Virus record (IMG/VR): IMGVR_UViG_2778261686_000005
Reading direction: 5' to 3' (one strand)
DNA from: a virus
Taxonomy: Duplodnaviria; Heunggongvirae; Uroviricota; Caudoviricetes
DNA: 4,739 bases
Positions 1-4,739 of this stretch are shown here, piece by piece (the stretch's first letter is position 1; every line of letters starts with the position of its first letter). A model generated the notes under the pieces. It saw only the letters and a list, made by a program, of their open reading frames with translations, did no database searches and was not told where the DNA came from. The translations under genes and the position numbers were made by a program.

Positions 1-897
1 ATGCTTCCATCGGAAACGATGATCTGGCAGCCTGAGTTCACAGATAAAACACTCTCCAGGAAACCCGGGGCGGTTCACCTCCATGCTGATCCAAATAGTT
101 ACTTTAGTGTTCAAGAGAAGCAGCAAGGGCAGAGCATTGCACAGCAGAACGCAGATACATCTGCATATAATGCTCAGGTTAATGCGGAACAGGGTAATCG
201 GCGTCTCGATATGGAGCAGTTCAAAGTCCTATCCGATAACCAACTACGCACGAGAGAAATGGTTCTGAAAGCACGACTTGGACGTGCTCAAAATGACATC
301 GAGAGAGACAAGCTCAATGCTGAACTGAGCAAGGTACAGCAGGCGAAAGTGGAGAAGATGAACGATAAAATTAATACTGTTACAGGTAACATCGACTCCT
401 TGAACTCTGCGCTTGAAGTGGGTCATGAACTGGCGGGAATTGTAGGGAAACATCCTTCGGCCGTTACCCGCTCGCAGAACTATAACCCCCTGACGCTGGG
501 GTTTGGATTCCTTCCTGATGTAGCAGAAGACACACGAAGCCTACGCGCCAAAGCTGATGAATACAACCTAAAGGTTATTCTGCCTAGCCTCAAAGGGACT
601 TTTGGCTCTAACCCAACCGAAGGGGAAAGGGCTGCCCTTATGCAATCTCAAAATGGCATTAAGTCAGCAACCAGCAATGAGGCATTTTTGCGAGAGTTGA
701 ATAAAGCGCAGGACGTAATTATTCGAATGCAGAAACGACAGATTGCCGGGCTCGGTATTCCTGTAACCAAATCAAAGGACGAAGAAACTGATACCAAAAT
801 GCTGTTGCAGGATCCTTCACTGGTTAAGGATTATGTGACCGCACATGGCTATCTGCCGGAAAGTTACTATCAGGCAAAACTTAAGGGATGGCAATGA
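1..897 (+). CDS. Phage internal virion / ejection (DNA-transfer) protein, C-terminal portion; probably 5'-truncated by the window edge
   Basis: The frame is open from base 1 to TGA at 895-897 (298 codons) with coding-like composition. It contains a charged helical, coiled-coil-like stretch (LKARLGRAQNDIERDKLNAELSKVQQAKVEKMNDKINTVTGNIDSL). Its stop overlaps the start of the next gene. The ATG at 1-3 is probably internal, with the true start upstream of the window. The product is inferred only from its position immediately upstream of the SLT-domain protein (the gp15/gp20-like position in podovirus ejection-protein operons); I see no catalytic motif. Confidence 0.7.
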   Translation: MLPSETMIWQPEFTDKTLSRKPGAVHLHADPNSYFSVQEKQQGQSIAQQNADTSAYNAQVNAEQGNRRLDMEQFKVLSDNQLRTREMVLKARLGRAQNDIERDKLNAELSKVQQAKVEKMNDKINTVTGNIDSLNSALEVGHELAGIVGKHPSAVTRSQNYNPLTLGFGFLPDVAEDTRSLRAKADEYNLKVILPSLKGTFGSNPTEGERAALMQSQNGIKSATSNEAFLRELNKAQDVIIRMQKRQIAGLGIPVTKSKDEETDTKMLLQDPSLVKDYVTAHGYLPESYYQAKLKGWQ

Positions 898-3614
898 TGG
901 CACAACTGACAGAAAAACAGAAAGCCTATTCCCGTCATCTCGATGAAAAATATGGTTTCCCATCAGGGACGATGGAAACATTAGTTGGCAATGAATCTAG
1001 TGGTAACGGAAGTGCCGAGTCACCGAAAGGAGCTAGAGGATTTGCTCAACTGATGCCCTCAGTAATGAGTGATGCTGGTTATCGTGGAACTGATCCGCGC
1101 TCACTGCCATTTGAAAAGCAAATGGATATCGCAGCAAACCATCTCAATAAAGGAATGAAGCGATTTGGTGATATAGGTATGGCATTGGCTGGGTATAATT
1201 CTGGCTATGCTCGTATTAATGCCGTCAGAAACGGTAAATCTACACTGCCAGATGAAACGGCTAATTACGTAAGTAAATTTGCAGATGCCGGAATAATCCC
1301 TGATGACAGTGAAATCTTGCAGTTTGCACAAACCAGTCAACATCGCAATCTTCAGCAGCCTGACTACTCGGAGCTGGATAAAGAAATCTCTCAGGTGGGA
1401 GATATTTCTGCATGGGAAGCAAAACGTCAGCAATTTAAGAACATAGAAGCAGGACTACCAACAGCCAGTTCATGGGAGCAGAAAAGAGCTCAGTTTCTCG
1501 CCGATGAAAATGCCGGGGAACCGCAGCAGCAAGTAGCCAAGTCTAACCTTAATCCTGAGATGGAATATCTTTCGCCAGGACTGAAAGCTGCGCCAGAGCA
1601 GATGGCCAGAGGGATTGCTAATATACCGTTTGATGTAATGGACGCAGGCGTGGGGGTAGTCAATGCGGCGCAATCAGCCGGAGCATGGGCAGCTCAGAAG
1701 CTTGGTGTGGGTGATGGCACATACACGCCCATATCACCTGTCTTTCGCCCAGTAGACCAACCTACAGATCCATACGCGCAGGCTGGTGAGCAGCTAGCAC
1801 CTTACCTTATTACAGGATTAGGCGCAGGAAAGGCAGCTACCGCAGCTTCTTCAGTTGCCAACGCTCCACGTGCTGAACGTGCGGCCACAAAGGTGGCTAG
1901 TATGTTGGCAGAAAACCTGCCAGGTACATTGGTGAACGCCCAAAAGAACGGGCAGATCAGCCCAGAAGACCTAGCAAAAGAGACAGGTATTGGCCTAGCA
2001 GGATCGCTAGGAGCACGCGCTTTAATAAAGAGCGGACAGACAGCCAGTGACGTAATGCGAGATGTATTGCGGAGTAATACAAATCAATCAGGCCATGTGT
2101 TAGGGGCAGCAAATACTCTGGAAACCGCCAATGATGTATCGAAAGCAGCGCGTTCTGCCGTAGGCCGAGAGCATATCGCATCGCAGGCATCAAACGTCAG
2201 AGATGATGTCGCTAAGGCGGCGAAAATCACTGGTATTAATATCAACACCCTGACGCCTGGAATGCGCTCAGGTAGTCGTGGAATTGCCCAAGCAGAAGGT
2301 GTTCTGGCATCAACTCCTGGGAATGTTCAGGATGCTCACCTTACGGCCTTCAATGAAATATCCTCAAAGTTGAATAAGCAGTTGTCTGATTTCGGTGCTG
2401 AGTCTGGAAGCGCATCAGAAAAAAGCGCAGCAATTAAAGAGCGCATCATCGCGAGCCTCAGTGATATGAAAACAGCAGAGAATATGGCATGGGCAGAACT
2501 GCGAAGCACGATGCCACGCGAAAGGATGAAAATGAGTAATGGGATGGCTGTCGTCCAAGCAGAAAAAGCAGCCAATGTTCCACTCAGCCCGGAGATGAAA
2601 CAGTTTCAGGCTGCCAACAACCAAGGTGGCGGCATAACCTTCGACGGGATGAAGGCATGGCGTGCTAAGTTTGCTGATGCTGAACAAGCAAACACCCGGG
2701 CAGGTAAGGCCAATGCCGCCCGGATTGCCGGAGAAATGCGCAGAGCTATCACTGATGACATGCGCATCATGGCTGAAAAAGGAAACTTCCTCACAGAATG
2801 GCAGAAAGCTAACGATCTCTCTAAAAGTTACATTATCGCCAAACAAAATGCCGAATCTGTTTTTGGTCGAGATCTCGCATCAGACGCTATGGTAAGAAAA
2901 GGTGCCGATACGCTTAAGGCATCCGCAAATACTGGAACGGGAGCTTTTCACCGCCTTATCTCCGCGCTGCCGGAAGCAGAACGCCAACCAGCAATAGCAT
3001 CTATTCTTCAGCATGCTGTGGCGCAGGGAGAGAAGGGAGGAATCGGTGAAGAGTCTGGTATCCAGTATTTTGCCAAGCTCATGACCCAGCAGAATGTAAA
3101 CGCCATCAGTCGTCATGCGCCAGATCTCGGTAGAATGATGAAAGAGTTCGGTGTACTCGCTAAAGCCAGCACCAGACCGCAGCGATACGTAGAGCGCACG
3201 GGAAGAACAACTGAGGCTCTCAAAACGCTCGATTCAGGCCTTCCAAAGATCGTCGGTGTGATTATGAACGGAGTTCAACAGTCAGGTGCGATCGCTGGAG
3301 GCTTTGGCGGTGGTGTAATTGGTTCGATTAGTGGTTTGGTTGCTGGTGGCGCACTGAGAAATACTGTGGCTAAGATTGGGGCGACAAGAAGTGGTCGATA
3401 TGCGATAGAGAAAGCCGTTCAGGAAGCTACAAAAGCAGTGCGCGCAGGGGCATCACCAGCAGCGATCGCCGCAGCAGAGAAACGATTTTCGGCCAATAAA
3501 ATTGCCATGAAAGCAATTCGTGATGCCGTTGGGGCTGAAGAATTCGTGAAACTGACAAGGGCCGGGATTGTAGCTACCCTCAGTGGCATGAAAGATGTTA
3601 GCGAATGGGAATAG
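888..3614 (+). CDS. Phage internal virion / DNA-injection protein with N-terminal lytic transglycosylase (SLT) domain
   Basis: 908-codon ORF ending at TAG 3612-3614. The N-terminus carries a family-1 lytic transglycosylase signature: a Glu-Ser pair (E36-S37, nt 993-998) in VGNESSGNGSAESPKGARGFAQLMPS, followed by ALAGYNSGYARI (the A-Y-N-x-G motif, Y103-N104 at nt 1194-1199). The body is Ala/Gln/Glu-rich and probably helical. Gly-rich hydrophobic segments occur mid-protein (PYLITGLGAGKAATAAS, GIGLAGSLGARALI) and near the C-terminus. Start is ambiguous: the SD-like AAGGG at 883-887 abuts ATG 888 but is well spaced for ATG 894 or 897, so the true start is more likely 894 or 897. Confidence 0.88.
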   Translation: MAMMAQLTEKQKAYSRHLDEKYGFPSGTMETLVGNESSGNGSAESPKGARGFAQLMPSVMSDAGYRGTDPRSLPFEKQMDIAANHLNKGMKRFGDIGMALAGYNSGYARINAVRNGKSTLPDETANYVSKFADAGIIPDDSEILQFAQTSQHRNLQQPDYSELDKEISQVGDISAWEAKRQQFKNIEAGLPTASSWEQKRAQFLADENAGEPQQQVAKSNLNPEMEYLSPGLKAAPEQMARGIANIPFDVMDAGVGVVNAAQSAGAWAAQKLGVGDGTYTPISPVFRPVDQPTDPYAQAGEQLAPYLITGLGAGKAATAASSVANAPRAERAATKVASMLAENLPGTLVNAQKNGQISPEDLAKETGIGLAGSLGARALIKSGQTASDVMRDVLRSNTNQSGHVLGAANTLETANDVSKAARSAVGREHIASQASNVRDDVAKAAKITGININTLTPGMRSGSRGIAQAEGVLASTPGNVQDAHLTAFNEISSKLNKQLSDFGAESGSASEKSAAIKERIIASLSDMKTAENMAWAELRSTMPRERMKMSNGMAVVQAEKAANVPLSPEMKQFQAANNQGGGITFDGMKAWRAKFADAEQANTRAGKANAARIAGEMRRAITDDMRIMAEKGNFLTEWQKANDLSKSYIIAKQNAESVFGRDLASDAMVRKGADTLKASANTGTGAFHRLISALPEAERQPAIASILQHAVAQGEKGGIGEESGIQYFAKLMTQQNVNAISRHAPDLGRMMKEFGVLAKASTRPQRYVERTGRTTEALKTLDSGLPKIVGVIMNGVQQSGAIAGGFGGGVIGSISGLVAGGALRNTVAKIGATRSGRYAIEKAVQEATKAVRAGASPAAIAAAEKRFSANKIAMKAIRDAVGAEEFVKLTRAGIVATLSGMKDVSEWE
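960..1262 (+). other. Lytic transglycosylase (SLT, family 1-like) catalytic domain within the 888..3614 CDS (approximate boundaries)
   Basis: Motif order E-S ... G-A-x-G-F-A-Q-L-M ... A-G-Y-N-S-G matches the conserved order of family-1 LT motifs (catalytic Glu-Ser, a G-L-M-Q-like block, A-Y-N-x-G). Boundaries were estimated by eye, not from an alignment. Confidence 0.7.
3249..3356 (+). other. Glycine-zipper-like hydrophobic segment (putative membrane-insertion region) near the C-terminus of the SLT-domain protein
   Basis: Residues ~788-823 read IVGVIMNGVQQSGAIAGGFGGGVIGSISGLVAGGAL. This is a long uncharged stretch with repeated small-x-x-x-small spacing, typical of membrane-inserting or channel-forming helices. 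Confidence 0.5.
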
Positions 3615-3764
3615 ACGCTCTAACTAACAAAACCATAATAGCCAAGGACGGCATACTGATATTGAGCCAACTATAAAAATTCCATATCACATTACGAGCC
3701 TGTGGCTTACATTCGCTTACAGTGATGATAATTTATAACCACGCAATTCTTAGGTGAGATTGTC
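3615..3764 (+). promoter_or_regulatory. AT-rich intergenic region with putative promoter and ribosome-binding site for the lipoprotein gene
   Basis: 150-bp non-coding spacer, visibly AT-richer than the flanking structural gene. A strong SD AGGTGA at 3752-3757 sits 7 nt before ATG 3765. Candidate -10-like hexamers are GATAAT (3727-3732), TATAAC (3734-3739) and TATAAA (3672-3677); a weak -35-like TTGAGC (3662-3667) lies 17 nt before TATCAC (3685-3690). I could not find a -35/-10 pair with a convincing consensus match, so the promoter position is uncertain. Confidence 0.3.
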
Positions 3765-3815
3765 ATGATTAAAAATCTTCTTTTAATATTATCCCTGTCA
3801 TTATTGGCTGGATGC
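3765..3815 (+). other. Type II (lipoprotein) signal peptide with lipobox LAGC
   Basis: Lys3 supplies the positive n-region, followed by a hydrophobic h-region (LLLILSLSLL) and the lipobox L14-A15-G16-C17. Confidence 0.8.
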
Positions 3816-4463
3816 GTACAAAAACCGTTAGTAACGGTCAATGCTTTATCCTCCGGGCAATCTGTCGGTAAGAAGTTCTTGATCATCCCCGCAAGCCAAG
3901 AACTTTGGAACACCAAACAGATTGAATACACTCAAATAGCTACGGTAGTAGCCGCCAGTTTATCAAGCCAAGGATATATACAAGTTAAAGATGAAAAATT
4001 GGCTGACCAGGTAATTCTCTTGAACTTTTTGAGAAGCGGGGCCATTTCAAATACTCGTAATGTAACCATCCCAATATACGGGCAAACTGGTGTGAGCTCA
4101 GCAACAACGTACGGAAACTCGAACACCACGTTCAATAGTTATGGTGGTGGCTACGGTACAGCTAATACCACTGGAACGGCAACAACAGTTTATACGCCTA
4201 CTTATGGAATTACTGGCGCGTATAACACAACTGTGACGGACACGTTCTACGGCGCAGGGGTGATACTCCAGTCGTTTGATGCCAAGGCTTATCTCAATAA
4301 TAGGCAGATTAATATGTTATGGAAAGTTGGTAGCTCAGTCGTCTCGCAACAGTCTGATGGAATTGCTGATTACAAAGGGTTGGCGAGAATAGCCGCTAGC
4401 TATGCCGGGAAAAATACAGAAGGTGATATAACTTTTAATGTTGACCCTAAAGCACCAAATTAA
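3765..4463 (+). CDS. Lipoprotein of unknown function (probably outer-membrane), phage accessory/moron gene; candidate superinfection-exclusion or defence factor
   Basis: 232-codon ORF with a good SD. The N-terminus MIKNLLLILSLSLLAGC is a signal peptide ending in a lipobox (L-A-G-C, Cys17 at nt 3813-3815). Residue +2 of the mature protein is Val, not Asp, which under E. coli Lol sorting rules predicts outer-membrane localisation. The gene has lower GC and AT-rich codon choice (ATA, TTA, AAA) compared with the upstream genes. A GC-rich hairpin follows the stop. I do not recognise a characterised family. Confidence 0.85.
   Translation: MIKNLLLILSLSLLAGCVQKPLVTVNALSSGQSVGKKFLIIPASQELWNTKQIEYTQIATVVAASLSSQGYIQVKDEKLADQVILLNFLRSGAISNTRNVTIPIYGQTGVSSATTYGNSNTTFNSYGGGYGTANTTGTATTVYTPTYGITGAYNTTVTDTFYGAGVILQSFDAKAYLNNRQINMLWKVGSSVVSQQSDGIADYKGLARIAASYAGKNTEGDITFNVDPKAPN
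4077..4259 (+). repeat. Low-complexity Thr/Gly/Tyr/Asn/Ser-rich segment inside the lipoprotein CDS (protein-level quasi-repeats, not a DNA tandem repeat)
   Basis: Residues ~105-165 read YGQTGVSSATTYGNSNTTFNSYGGGYGTANTTGTATTVYTPTYGITGAYNTTVTDTFYGAG. By manual count roughly 30% are Thr, with recurring T-x-Y-G / Y-G-x-T units and no charged residues except one Asp. The flanking sequence has ordinary composition. Confidence 0.6.
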
Positions 4464-4470
4464 CTAATAA

Positions 4471-4486
4471 GCCCGGTACGCCGGGC
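4471..4486 (+). terminator. GC-rich hairpin 8 nt downstream of the lipoprotein stop; possible intrinsic terminator
   Basis: GCCCGG-TACG-CCGGGC forms a perfect 6-bp all-G:C stem with a 4-nt loop. The sequence after it (ATTCATGCCCCTATTATTC) is T-containing but not a clean U-tract, so it may act as a weak terminator or an RNA-stability element. Confidence 0.35.
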
Positions 4487-4739
4487 ATTCATGCCCCTAT
4501 TATTCATGAATCGCTTTTTCTGGAAGGTATGCGACAAACGTTAAGTGACATTGCCTACACATTCGGGGCGGGATTTCAAATCCGCTCCCAGTTGATGGGG
4601 CCGTTACAGTACGCGCATATCCGCTTTATGTGAAACAGGAAGATTTTTCTGATATCACTGCCTGGATTTGCCCCTATATTTCCAGACACCTGTTATCACT
4701 TAACCCATTACTGGCCTGCTGCCGCAGATATTCCCGTGG

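Follow-up and report, generated by a model that had tools for sequence, protein, structure and literature searches.

Phage P22 passes its DNA through the cell envelope with a set of ejected virion proteins: the virion holds about 12 copies of gp7, about 12 of gp16 and about 30 of gp20, which are released before the DNA and form a trans-envelope conduit (PMC8402733, PMC10461980). gp16 is associated with membranes, and Perez et al. and Wang et al. (cited in PMC10461980) assign it to the inner membrane. Unlike T7, the P22-like phages have no core stack (reviewed in PMC8954989), and the gp16 protein of T7 carries a lytic transglycosylase (LT) that is needed when the peptidoglycan is highly cross-linked (Moak and Molineux, as cited in PMC8954989). 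Here, we describe a gene that appears to join an LT of the T7 kind to a gp16 of the P22 kind. It lies in a stretch of viral DNA of 4,739 nucleotides (IMG/VR record IMGVR_UViG_2778261686_000005), the whole of which we call the window. Its product, LT-gp16, is quite probably a P22 gp16-family ejection protein with a fused LT, encoded by the last gene of a complete ejection cassette that is borne by a phage satellite.

The closest described element is EcCIMP1 of E. coli MP1 (GenBank OR778291), a satellite of 19,963 bp that excises and circularises only with the temperate podovirus vB_EcoP_Kapi1, hereafter Kapi1 (Pick, Stadel & Raivio, ISME J 2025, PMC11773190). According to the same study, excision requires the element's own integrase and alpA, Kapi1 transduces the element at low frequency, and the element adds superinfection immunity against Kapi1 in lysogens through a gene that was left unidentified there. 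Its authors treat EcCIMP1_017-019 as hypothetical genes, possibly for packaging, and state that the element is without phage structural genes. With regard to the ejection proteins (E-proteins), complete sets from other P22-like phages assemble into working P22 virions (Leavitt et al., PMC10461980); gp16 has to be paired with its cognate gp20, gp7 can be exchanged, and the determinants of escape from SieA exclusion lie in gp16 and gp20 (PMC10461980).

The gene and its parts lie as follows in the window:

888–3614, + strand: gene of the LT-gp16 fusion ejection protein, 908 aa, no internal stops
936–1244, + strand: lytic transglycosylase (SLT) domain, aa 17–119, Pfam SLT PF01464
993–998, + strand: predicted catalytic pair Glu36-Ser37, within the SLT domain
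1308–1592, + strand: Gln/Glu/Ala-rich linker from the LT to the gp16 body, aa 141–235, predicted to be flexible, low confidence
1452–3479, + strand: body of the P22 gp16 family ("DNA transfer protein"), aa 189–864, phrog_770
3249–3356, + strand: Gly-rich hydrophobic ("glycine zipper") segment, aa 788–823

RefSeq places the start of the gene at the ATG at window position 894, which gives a protein of 906 aa and overlaps the upstream stop codon (895–897) as ATGA, an arrangement typical of translational coupling. The window protein is 99.8% identical to the copy in E. coli NC101, and at the nucleotide level the locus of strain 214-4 matches the window at 100%.

The N-terminal domain matches Pfam SLT with E = 1.1e-12 and 48 bits, against a gathering cutoff of 21.3. 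We aligned 34 homologues, 24 of which bear an LT, and observed that Glu36-Ser37 and the motifs GA.G..Q.MP and YN.G are invariant in all of these 24. In the AlphaFold2 (AF2) model, the LT region (aa ~10–150) has predicted local distance difference test (pLDDT) values of 84–93. A Foldseek search of the PDB with this model returned lytic transglycosylases only, namely MltD, Slt, MltE, MltC and the N-terminal part of T7 gp16 (7k5c_B, 7eyb_I and 9jyy_I, which are ejectosome and virion core structures), with weak E-values (≥0.02) because the query was the full-length, half-disordered model. Profile score, Glu-Ser motif and predicted goose-lysozyme-like fold are all those of a family-1 lytic transglycosylase, and catalysis is predicted.

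The linker that follows (aa 141–235) contains 13.7% Gln and 10.5% Glu and has pLDDT values below 50, and gp16 homologues without an LT start to align at aa 158–237. The body is predicted by AF2 to be all alpha-helical and contains 16.8% Ala. Towards its end, aa 788–823 form a run of 36 residues that has no D, E, K or R, is 27% Gly and gives the top Kyte-Doolittle window of the protein; all 34 homologues share Gly800, 804, 807–809, 812 and 816. This composition makes the segment a candidate inner-membrane insertion element, while weaker hydrophobic stretches are found at aa 243–261 and 306–324. Taken together, the features of LT-gp16 are those of a strongly conserved protein family and not the product of chance.

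To which family does the rest of the protein belong? The phrog_770 match covers aa 189–864 (E = 1.8e-120; profile positions 55–665 of 668), and both PF01464 (SLT) and PF26808 (Phage_P22_gp16) are precomputed on a 100%-identical cluster representative (P0001). By tblastn, the body (aa ~177–901) is 48–52% identical to gp16 of HK620 and CUS-3, the closest characterised members of the family, and of epsilon34, with alignments starting at aa 177–213, and like these proteins it is encoded last in a 14-7-20-16 cassette. The gp16 proteins of these three phages are 719–722 aa long and begin where the linker of LT-gp16 ends; consequently, LT-gp16 corresponds to a complete HK620/CUS-3-type gp16 to which ~186 residues (LT and linker) are added N-terminally, an addition that is missing from gp16 of P22, HK620, CUS-3 and Kapi1. 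It is also longer than the usual P22-type gp16 (908 aa against 609–722 aa), and it shares with homologues in the P22 gp16 family a conserved C-terminal tail besides the Gly-rich hydrophobic segment. The similarity to P22 gp16 itself is confined to ~170 residues, in agreement with the known mosaicism of gp16 proteins (PMC8954989, PMC10461980). It is almost certain, in our judgement, that LT-gp16 is a P22 gp16-family ejection protein with an N-terminal lytic transglycosylase.

The relation to T7 gp16 (internal virion protein D, PHROG 342; structures 7K5C and 7EYB) is that of the LT, which is both analogous to and homologous with the N-terminal module described here. Both proteins start with a family-1 LT, with Glu36 in LT-gp16 corresponding to Glu37 in T7, and in both the LT would be delivered to the periplasm and the C-terminal parts to the inner membrane. 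We found that phrog_342 matches aa 9–217 with its profile positions 13–210 of 1,235 (E = 2.5e-16), and that a hidden Markov model (HMM) of the LT-gp16 family matches T7 gp16 over residues 17–150 (E = 2.6e-11), with nothing significant beyond the LT. Pairwise BLASTP between the two proteins was marginal, giving no match at E<1e-3. Homology is undetectable past residue ~217, the T7 protein has 1,318 aa compared with 908, and its partners are T7 gp14 and gp15, whereas those of LT-gp16 are P22-type gp7 and gp20. As the match by profile, HMM and BLASTP is to the LT domain only, we reject membership of the T7 gp16 family.

An earlier note on this DNA had proposed, from the letters of the sequence, a modular protein of 908 aa resembling those that podoviruses carry inside the virion and eject, with an LT at the N-terminus whose Glu-Ser pair lies near residue 36 and with a C-terminal glycine-zipper hydrophobic segment. 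The family matches (phrog_770 and SLT), the invariant Glu36-Ser37 and the uncharged, glycine-conserved segment bear all of this out. The Ala/Gln/Glu-rich helical body that it described is indeed helical and rich in Ala, but the enrichment in Gln and Glu is confined to the linker, and the resemblance that it saw to T7 gp16 holds for the homology and position of the LT (phrog_342, HMM and 7k5c_B) but not beyond it. Its idea of a compact T7-gp16-like lineage has to be reversed, since the body is a complete P22 gp16-family protein and LT-gp16 is an enlarged P22-type gp16, not a shrunken T7 gp16. The note had also named type IV secretion systems (T4SS), conjugation and tape-measure proteins as readings that would overturn its own. 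No tape-measure or T4SS/conjugative VirB1-like family is present among the Pfam, PHROG and NCBIfam matches, there is no plasmid match, and the flanking genes are ejection and satellite genes, so that an origin of this kind is unsupported.

In what kind of element does the gene reside? In 72 complete E. coli chromosomes, the sequence of window positions 76–4662 recurs with at least 99.7% identity. We examined the loci of NC101 and strain 214-4 with 20-kb flanks and found that the LT-gp16 gene lies in both within an element of ~18–20 kb that is not a prophage. From its 5′ side, the element encodes a tyrosine integrase, AlpA, a hypothetical protein, AntA/B, DUF4222, Ash, small open reading frames (ORFs) and a 918-aa TOPRIM-DUF927 primase. 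The primase is followed by a DUF2824 protein (PF11039, P22 gp14-like), a P22_gp7 protein (PF25688), a gp20 "injectosome translocase" protein (PF16928) and LT-gp16, after which the E. coli elements carry a lipoprotein gene, a reverse-strand AlpA-like gene and a PerC gene. A comparison with P22 itself shows that the cassette order, 14-7-20-16, is the P22 gene order. No capsid, portal, terminase, tail or lysis genes were detected in intact copies of the element with Pfam and PHROGs, and no homologues of portal, coat, gp4, gp10, gp26 or tailspike lie within 10–20 kb in any of 17 intact satellite contexts.

The combination of backbone and cassette recurs. The NC101 and 214-4 copies are integrated at different sites with unrelated integrases (at a tRNA-Thr beside proA and between yicC and dinD), backbone and cassette are both found in Citrobacter and in Leclercia, with LT-gp16 proteins of 85% and 84% identity, respectively, and the same arrangement is present in three IMG/VR contigs of 17–23 kb. 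The exact LT-gp16 protein is indexed in 1,799 blocks of an assembly collection, from which eight distinct contexts were retrieved; all eight contain the backbone with the cassette. Among 80 IMG/VR relatives, 72 adjoin P22-type morphogenesis genes, three are the satellite contigs and five are unclassified. A genome-representative scan covered 15 loci and gives no reliable figure for prevalence.

These elements are of the EcCIMP1 type: window positions 79–4662 are 99.7% identical to the MP1 chromosome, with the same gene order, the difference being that the window is only a 4.6-kb fragment bounded by insertion sequences (ISs) and has a truncated gp20-like gene. We consider it very probable that the carrier is a satellite of the phage-inducible chromosomal island (PICI) type, which also sets it apart from the P22-like phages as a carrier of gene 16. 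That the element depends on a helper is reported in PMC11773190 for the MP1 copy, to which the identity is 99.7%; the window genome itself is represented by the IS-bounded fragment alone. By their sequence matches, EcCIMP1_017-019 together with LT-gp16 constitute a full P22 ejection-protein module, which the describers of the element did not recognise. The earlier note had considered a temperate podovirus possible and had proposed to look for portal, capsid or tail genes near by and for an integrase. What we found is a PICI-type satellite of such a podovirus, with an integrase on its backbone and with these structural genes absent from all 17 intact contexts.

Is the cassette maintained, or is it merely a passenger? 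Between the E. coli, Citrobacter and Leclercia satellites, the ratio of nonsynonymous to synonymous substitution rates (dN/dS) is 0.04–0.10 for all four cassette genes at dS ~1; within LT-gp16 it is 0.049 for the LT domain and 0.042 for the Gly-rich segment. Furthermore, the cassette proteins are 82–89% identical in amino acids across the three genera, compared with 65–68% for the primase and 42–51% for Ash. The low dN/dS, together with the better conservation of the cassette than of primase and Ash, indicates that the cassette is kept by selection.

The cassette proteins differ widely in how closely they match their counterparts in the helper Kapi1:

gp14-like protein of the satellite: 83% identity to the Kapi1 counterpart
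gp7 of the satellite: 57% identity to the Kapi1 counterpart
gp20 of the satellite: ~26% identity to the Kapi1 counterpart (N-terminal part)
LT-gp16 of the satellite: ~24% identity to Kapi1_058 (partial)

Kapi1_058 has 722 aa and no SLT domain. The sole homology between satellite and helper at the DNA level covers the gp14 gene and the first ~135 nt of the gp7 gene, with 81% identity over 596 nt (18371–18960 in the E. coli satellite locus L001 and 7547–8135 in the Kapi1 locus L005). The close gp14-like match suggests either that this assembly factor must fit the helper or that the two genomes have recently recombined. A blastn search of the satellite for a helper pac-like sequence, with the last ~2.5 kb of Kapi1 excluded, found only the gp14/gp7 region to be shared.

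The remainder of the window consists of a damaged neighbour on one side of the gene, a lipoprotein gene on the other and two IS ends:

1–80, no strand assigned: right end of IS629 (IS3 family), terminal ~75–80 nt
76–897, + strand: what remains of the gp20-like ejection gene (3′ part), a homologue of P22 gene 20
3765–4463, + strand: predicted lipoprotein of 232 aa with the lipobox L-A-G-C17, in a low-GC patch (38.5% GC)
4655–4739, no strand assigned: end of an IS3-family insertion sequence, 96–98% identical to annotated ends, at which the element is cut short downstream

Window positions 1–79/82 are 98.8–100% identical to IS629 ends in many Shiga toxin (Stx) phages, one of which has the matched feature annotated as "inverted repeat from right end of IS629", and the right-hand fragment (4655–4739) matches ends annotated "IS3 family transposase" in ~2,500 plasmid records. 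Satellite homology in E. coli genomes begins at window position 76–79 and ends at 4662, and the two IS junctions were found in no complete E. coli genome. The ORF at 1–897 (298 aa) aligns to residues 143–439 of the intact 439-aa gp20-like protein. As its ATG at position 1 comes from IS629, this ORF is a chimera and its first codon is not a real gene start; the IS629 insertion has removed the 5′ third of the gene, with ~166 N-terminal residues that include most of the Inj_translocase domain. The intact protein has PF16928 at aa 34–196 and matches phrog_917/phrog_2534, and Pfam gave no Inj_translocase match for the window ORF. Many assemblies carry the exact LT-gp16 protein on contigs of 2–10 kb, and these contig sizes together with the k-mer-like size of the IS fragments (~75–85 nt) point to a short-read contig, broken off in repeats, as the nature of the window. 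Since the LT-gp16 ORF is unbroken and does not differ from copies that look functional, the disruption would be recent, and the truncation of its cognate gp20 probably leaves this copy of LT-gp16 inactive. Most likely, the window copy is a recently disabled remnant in which the LT-gp16 ORF is still intact.

The lipoprotein gene directly follows the LT-gp16 gene in all eight E. coli contexts, and an 88% match stands in one IMG/VR contig (L028). In the Citrobacter elements, two small reverse-strand genes take its place. We detected no homologue of the lipoprotein in 50,697 phage records, no PADLOC match and only sub-threshold Pfam matches (DUF4136, E = 0.39). Since it occupies the slot after gene 16 that sieA has in P22, it is a candidate for the superinfection immunity conferred by EcCIMP1, and the reading of it as exclusion cargo in the earlier note is plausible.

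Elsewhere in the satellites, the intact E. coli element ends with the AlpA-like gene at 25460–25645 (− strand) and the PerC-family gene at 26321–26602 (+ strand) of locus L001, both absent from the window. According to PMC11773190, the AlpA-like gene can replace the Kapi1 excisionase and the PerC-family gene represses LEE (locus of enterocyte effacement). In the Citrobacter elements, the primase and the cassette are separated by SSB and ProQ-like genes.

Could a satellite bring its own ejection proteins to the capsids of its helper? In the mechanism that we propose, the satellite would express the 14-7-20-16 cassette during the late stage of the helper's lytic growth, and the products would be built into helper-made capsids, possibly with the helper-matched gp14 as an assembly adaptor. 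At the next infection, the cassette proteins would be expelled through the tail. The LT domain, which the Kapi1 gene-16 protein does not have, would cut the peptidoglycan locally, gp20 would build a periplasmic tube and the gp16 body would insert its Gly-rich segment in the inner membrane, thereby completing the DNA conduit. The presence of all four genes fits the requirement for a cognate gp16/gp20 pair. Moreover, LT-gp16 has no signal peptide and its LT is under selection, from which we infer that the enzyme could reach the peptidoglycan only by injection from outside. On balance, we lean towards the view that the cassette proteins are packaged into helper capsids and serve the delivery of the satellite's own DNA.

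Several points weigh against this interpretation. The presence of the satellite proteins in virions is deduced from sequences and not from proteomics, and the transcriptome paper on strain MP1 does not, in its main text, report the cassette gene by gene. EcCIMP1 is transduced with very low efficiency (~4.8e3 per ml) and deletion of EcCIMP1 leaves Kapi1 titres unchanged (PMC11773190), so that the cassette is without a demonstrated phenotype. If satellite and helper gp16/gp20 were mixed in one capsid, poisoned particles could be anticipated, since non-cognate pairs are non-functional (PMC10461980), but interference was not observed, and a Kapi1-like prophage is present in only 2 of 21 EcCIMP1 strains (PMC11773190). 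At the structural level, AF2 confidence is low over about half of LT-gp16 (mean pLDDT 56.9). The PDB sequence search gave no match to the protein at E ≤ 0.01, and neither this search nor the PDB fold search yielded a solved structure for the body; full-length matches in a BFVD fold search had root-mean-square deviations above 20 Å and are informative only as "phage LT-containing internal proteins". In the window itself, the truncated partner gene may leave LT-gp16 non-functional.

How else could the cassette be explained? One could regard LT-gp16 as the ordinary gene-16 product of a defective P22-like prophage that happens to adjoin an unrelated primase/AlpA island, as the homology and synteny with P22 14-7-20-16 and the IS damage in the window would allow; indeed, the EcCIMP1 authors first called the region an incomplete prophage (PMC11773190). 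However, backbone and cassette recur together intact in three genera, at several sites and under different integrases; portal, coat or tail genes never accompany them. The 19,963-bp unit that excises, in a strictly helper-dependent manner, includes the cassette (PMC11773190), and all four genes are under strong purifying selection. The defective-prophage explanation is thus already largely refuted, and we regard it as very improbable. Equally improbable is a module for DNA packaging or capsid redirection, as suggested in the EcCIMP1 paper. The cassette does stand downstream of the primase, where PICIs usually have their packaging genes (PMC11773190), and the PHROG that contains the gp14-like protein is labelled "head morphogenesis"; but three of the four genes match curated P22 ejection families (PF25688, PF16928 and PF26808), and neither terminase nor Ppi/Rpp-like nor scaffold homologues were detected in intact copies with Pfam and PHROGs. 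P22 with a non-functional E-protein set makes normal numbers of particles (PMC10461980), which also speaks for a role in delivery.

A further explanation deserves more attention, although we judge it unlikely: satellite E-proteins, resident in the cell or carried in particles and perhaps assisted by the lipoprotein, could spoil superinfection by P22-like phages and thereby account for the immunity. EcCIMP1 adds immunity against Kapi1 superinfection, and no PADLOC or DefenseFinder system was found that would provide it. In addition, P22 SieA acts on gp16 and gp20, non-cognate gp16/gp20 pairs lead to non-infectious particles (both PMC10461980), and the lipoprotein sits in the slot held by sieA in P22. 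On the other hand, induced lysogens yield the same Kapi1 titres with and without EcCIMP1 (PMC11773190), and a decoy role leaves unexplained why gp14 and the catalytic motif of the LT are conserved (dN/dS 0.049). It is also difficult to see how LT-gp16, which has no signal peptide, would reach the envelope from inside the cell, and in the Citrobacter elements the cassette is retained without the lipoprotein.

At the level of the protein, the finding is ordinary, as the SLT plus P22-gp16 architecture is already in Pfam, RefSeq and sequenced phages, and the EcCIMP1 element itself is already published. We found no description of satellite-encoded ejection proteins in our literature searches or in the satellite census of 2023. 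That EcCIMP1-family satellites encode a complete "ejectosome" of their own and re-equip with it the capsids built by a P22-like helper is a tentative proposal, possible rather than probable. The functions that known satellites hijack or encode are those of capsid, packaging and connector, and delivery machinery would be a new stage of hijacking: DNA delivery, besides packaging or capsid size, would be a phage stage that a satellite takes over. An added LT and a replaced gp20/gp16 pair, which is the pair targeted by SieA, could open to the satellite helper lysogens or stationary-phase cells that are closed to the particles of the helper itself, and the ejection set could also underlie the superinfection immunity of EcCIMP1. 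The cassette genes are concrete candidates for the packaging and immunity phenotypes of that element, and the 2023 census set aside more than 6,000 "Type C" PICI-like elements, on which a satellite ejection cassette would also bear.

With respect to SieA, two published results could not be carried over to LT-gp16. The SieA preprint (PMC10461980) reports CUS-3 and HK620 gp16 as 26% identical and credits this difference for the partial escape of HK620 from SieA. In the GenBank records, CUS-3 gp16 (locus L117, 1432–3591) and HK620 gp16 (locus L118, 1432–3600) are 77% identical; the reported figure was not reproduced, and we make no use of the argument that an HK620-type gp16 escapes SieA. The differences between these two proteins cluster around the Gly-rich segment, at HK620 aa ~598–650. 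Mapping of the P22 SieA-escape residues (gp16 G532 and P546) onto the Gly-rich segment of LT-gp16 failed. P22 gp16 aligns to the LT-gp16 family only at residues 37–206, with a further marginal stretch at the C-terminus, and lacks an equivalent of the Gly zipper.

The fusion is also found in phages. The late-operon position between tail-needle and tailspike genes is seen only in distant homologues (Dewey, Serratia and Tatumella). Escherichia phage Dewey is a complete P22-like phage in which the fusion (CDS0014, 875 aa; 8962–11589 of its locus) occupies the gene-16 slot directly upstream of the tailspike and is 46% identical to LT-gp16 over the full length. LT-bearing Serratia proteins are 53–57% identical to LT-gp16, one of them (P0025) being placed in a complete P22-like prophage, and the Serratia and Tatumella prophages with the fusion carry P22-type portal, coat, gp4, gp10, needle and tailspike genes. 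Among phage relatives, the one nearest to the satellite protein belongs to a Serratia prophage whose portal (91%) and coat (89%) proteins are Kapi1-like; its LT domain is 72% identical to that of the satellite.

Another protein of similar design is the "transglycosylase" of Shigella phage Sf101 (Sf101_0013, 911 aa; 6962–9697), which has an SLT N-terminus and occupies the gene-16 slot. By BLASTP, it is 33% identical to LT-gp16 over aa 21–312, and only the N-terminal ~300 residues align; its LT is of another sequence subtype and its C-terminal body of another type. Several bona fide P22-like phages and prophages (Sf101, Dewey and loci L011, L012 and L014) have LT-bearing proteins in the gene-16 slot, and the N-termini of gp16 proteins carry at least three LT sequence subtypes.

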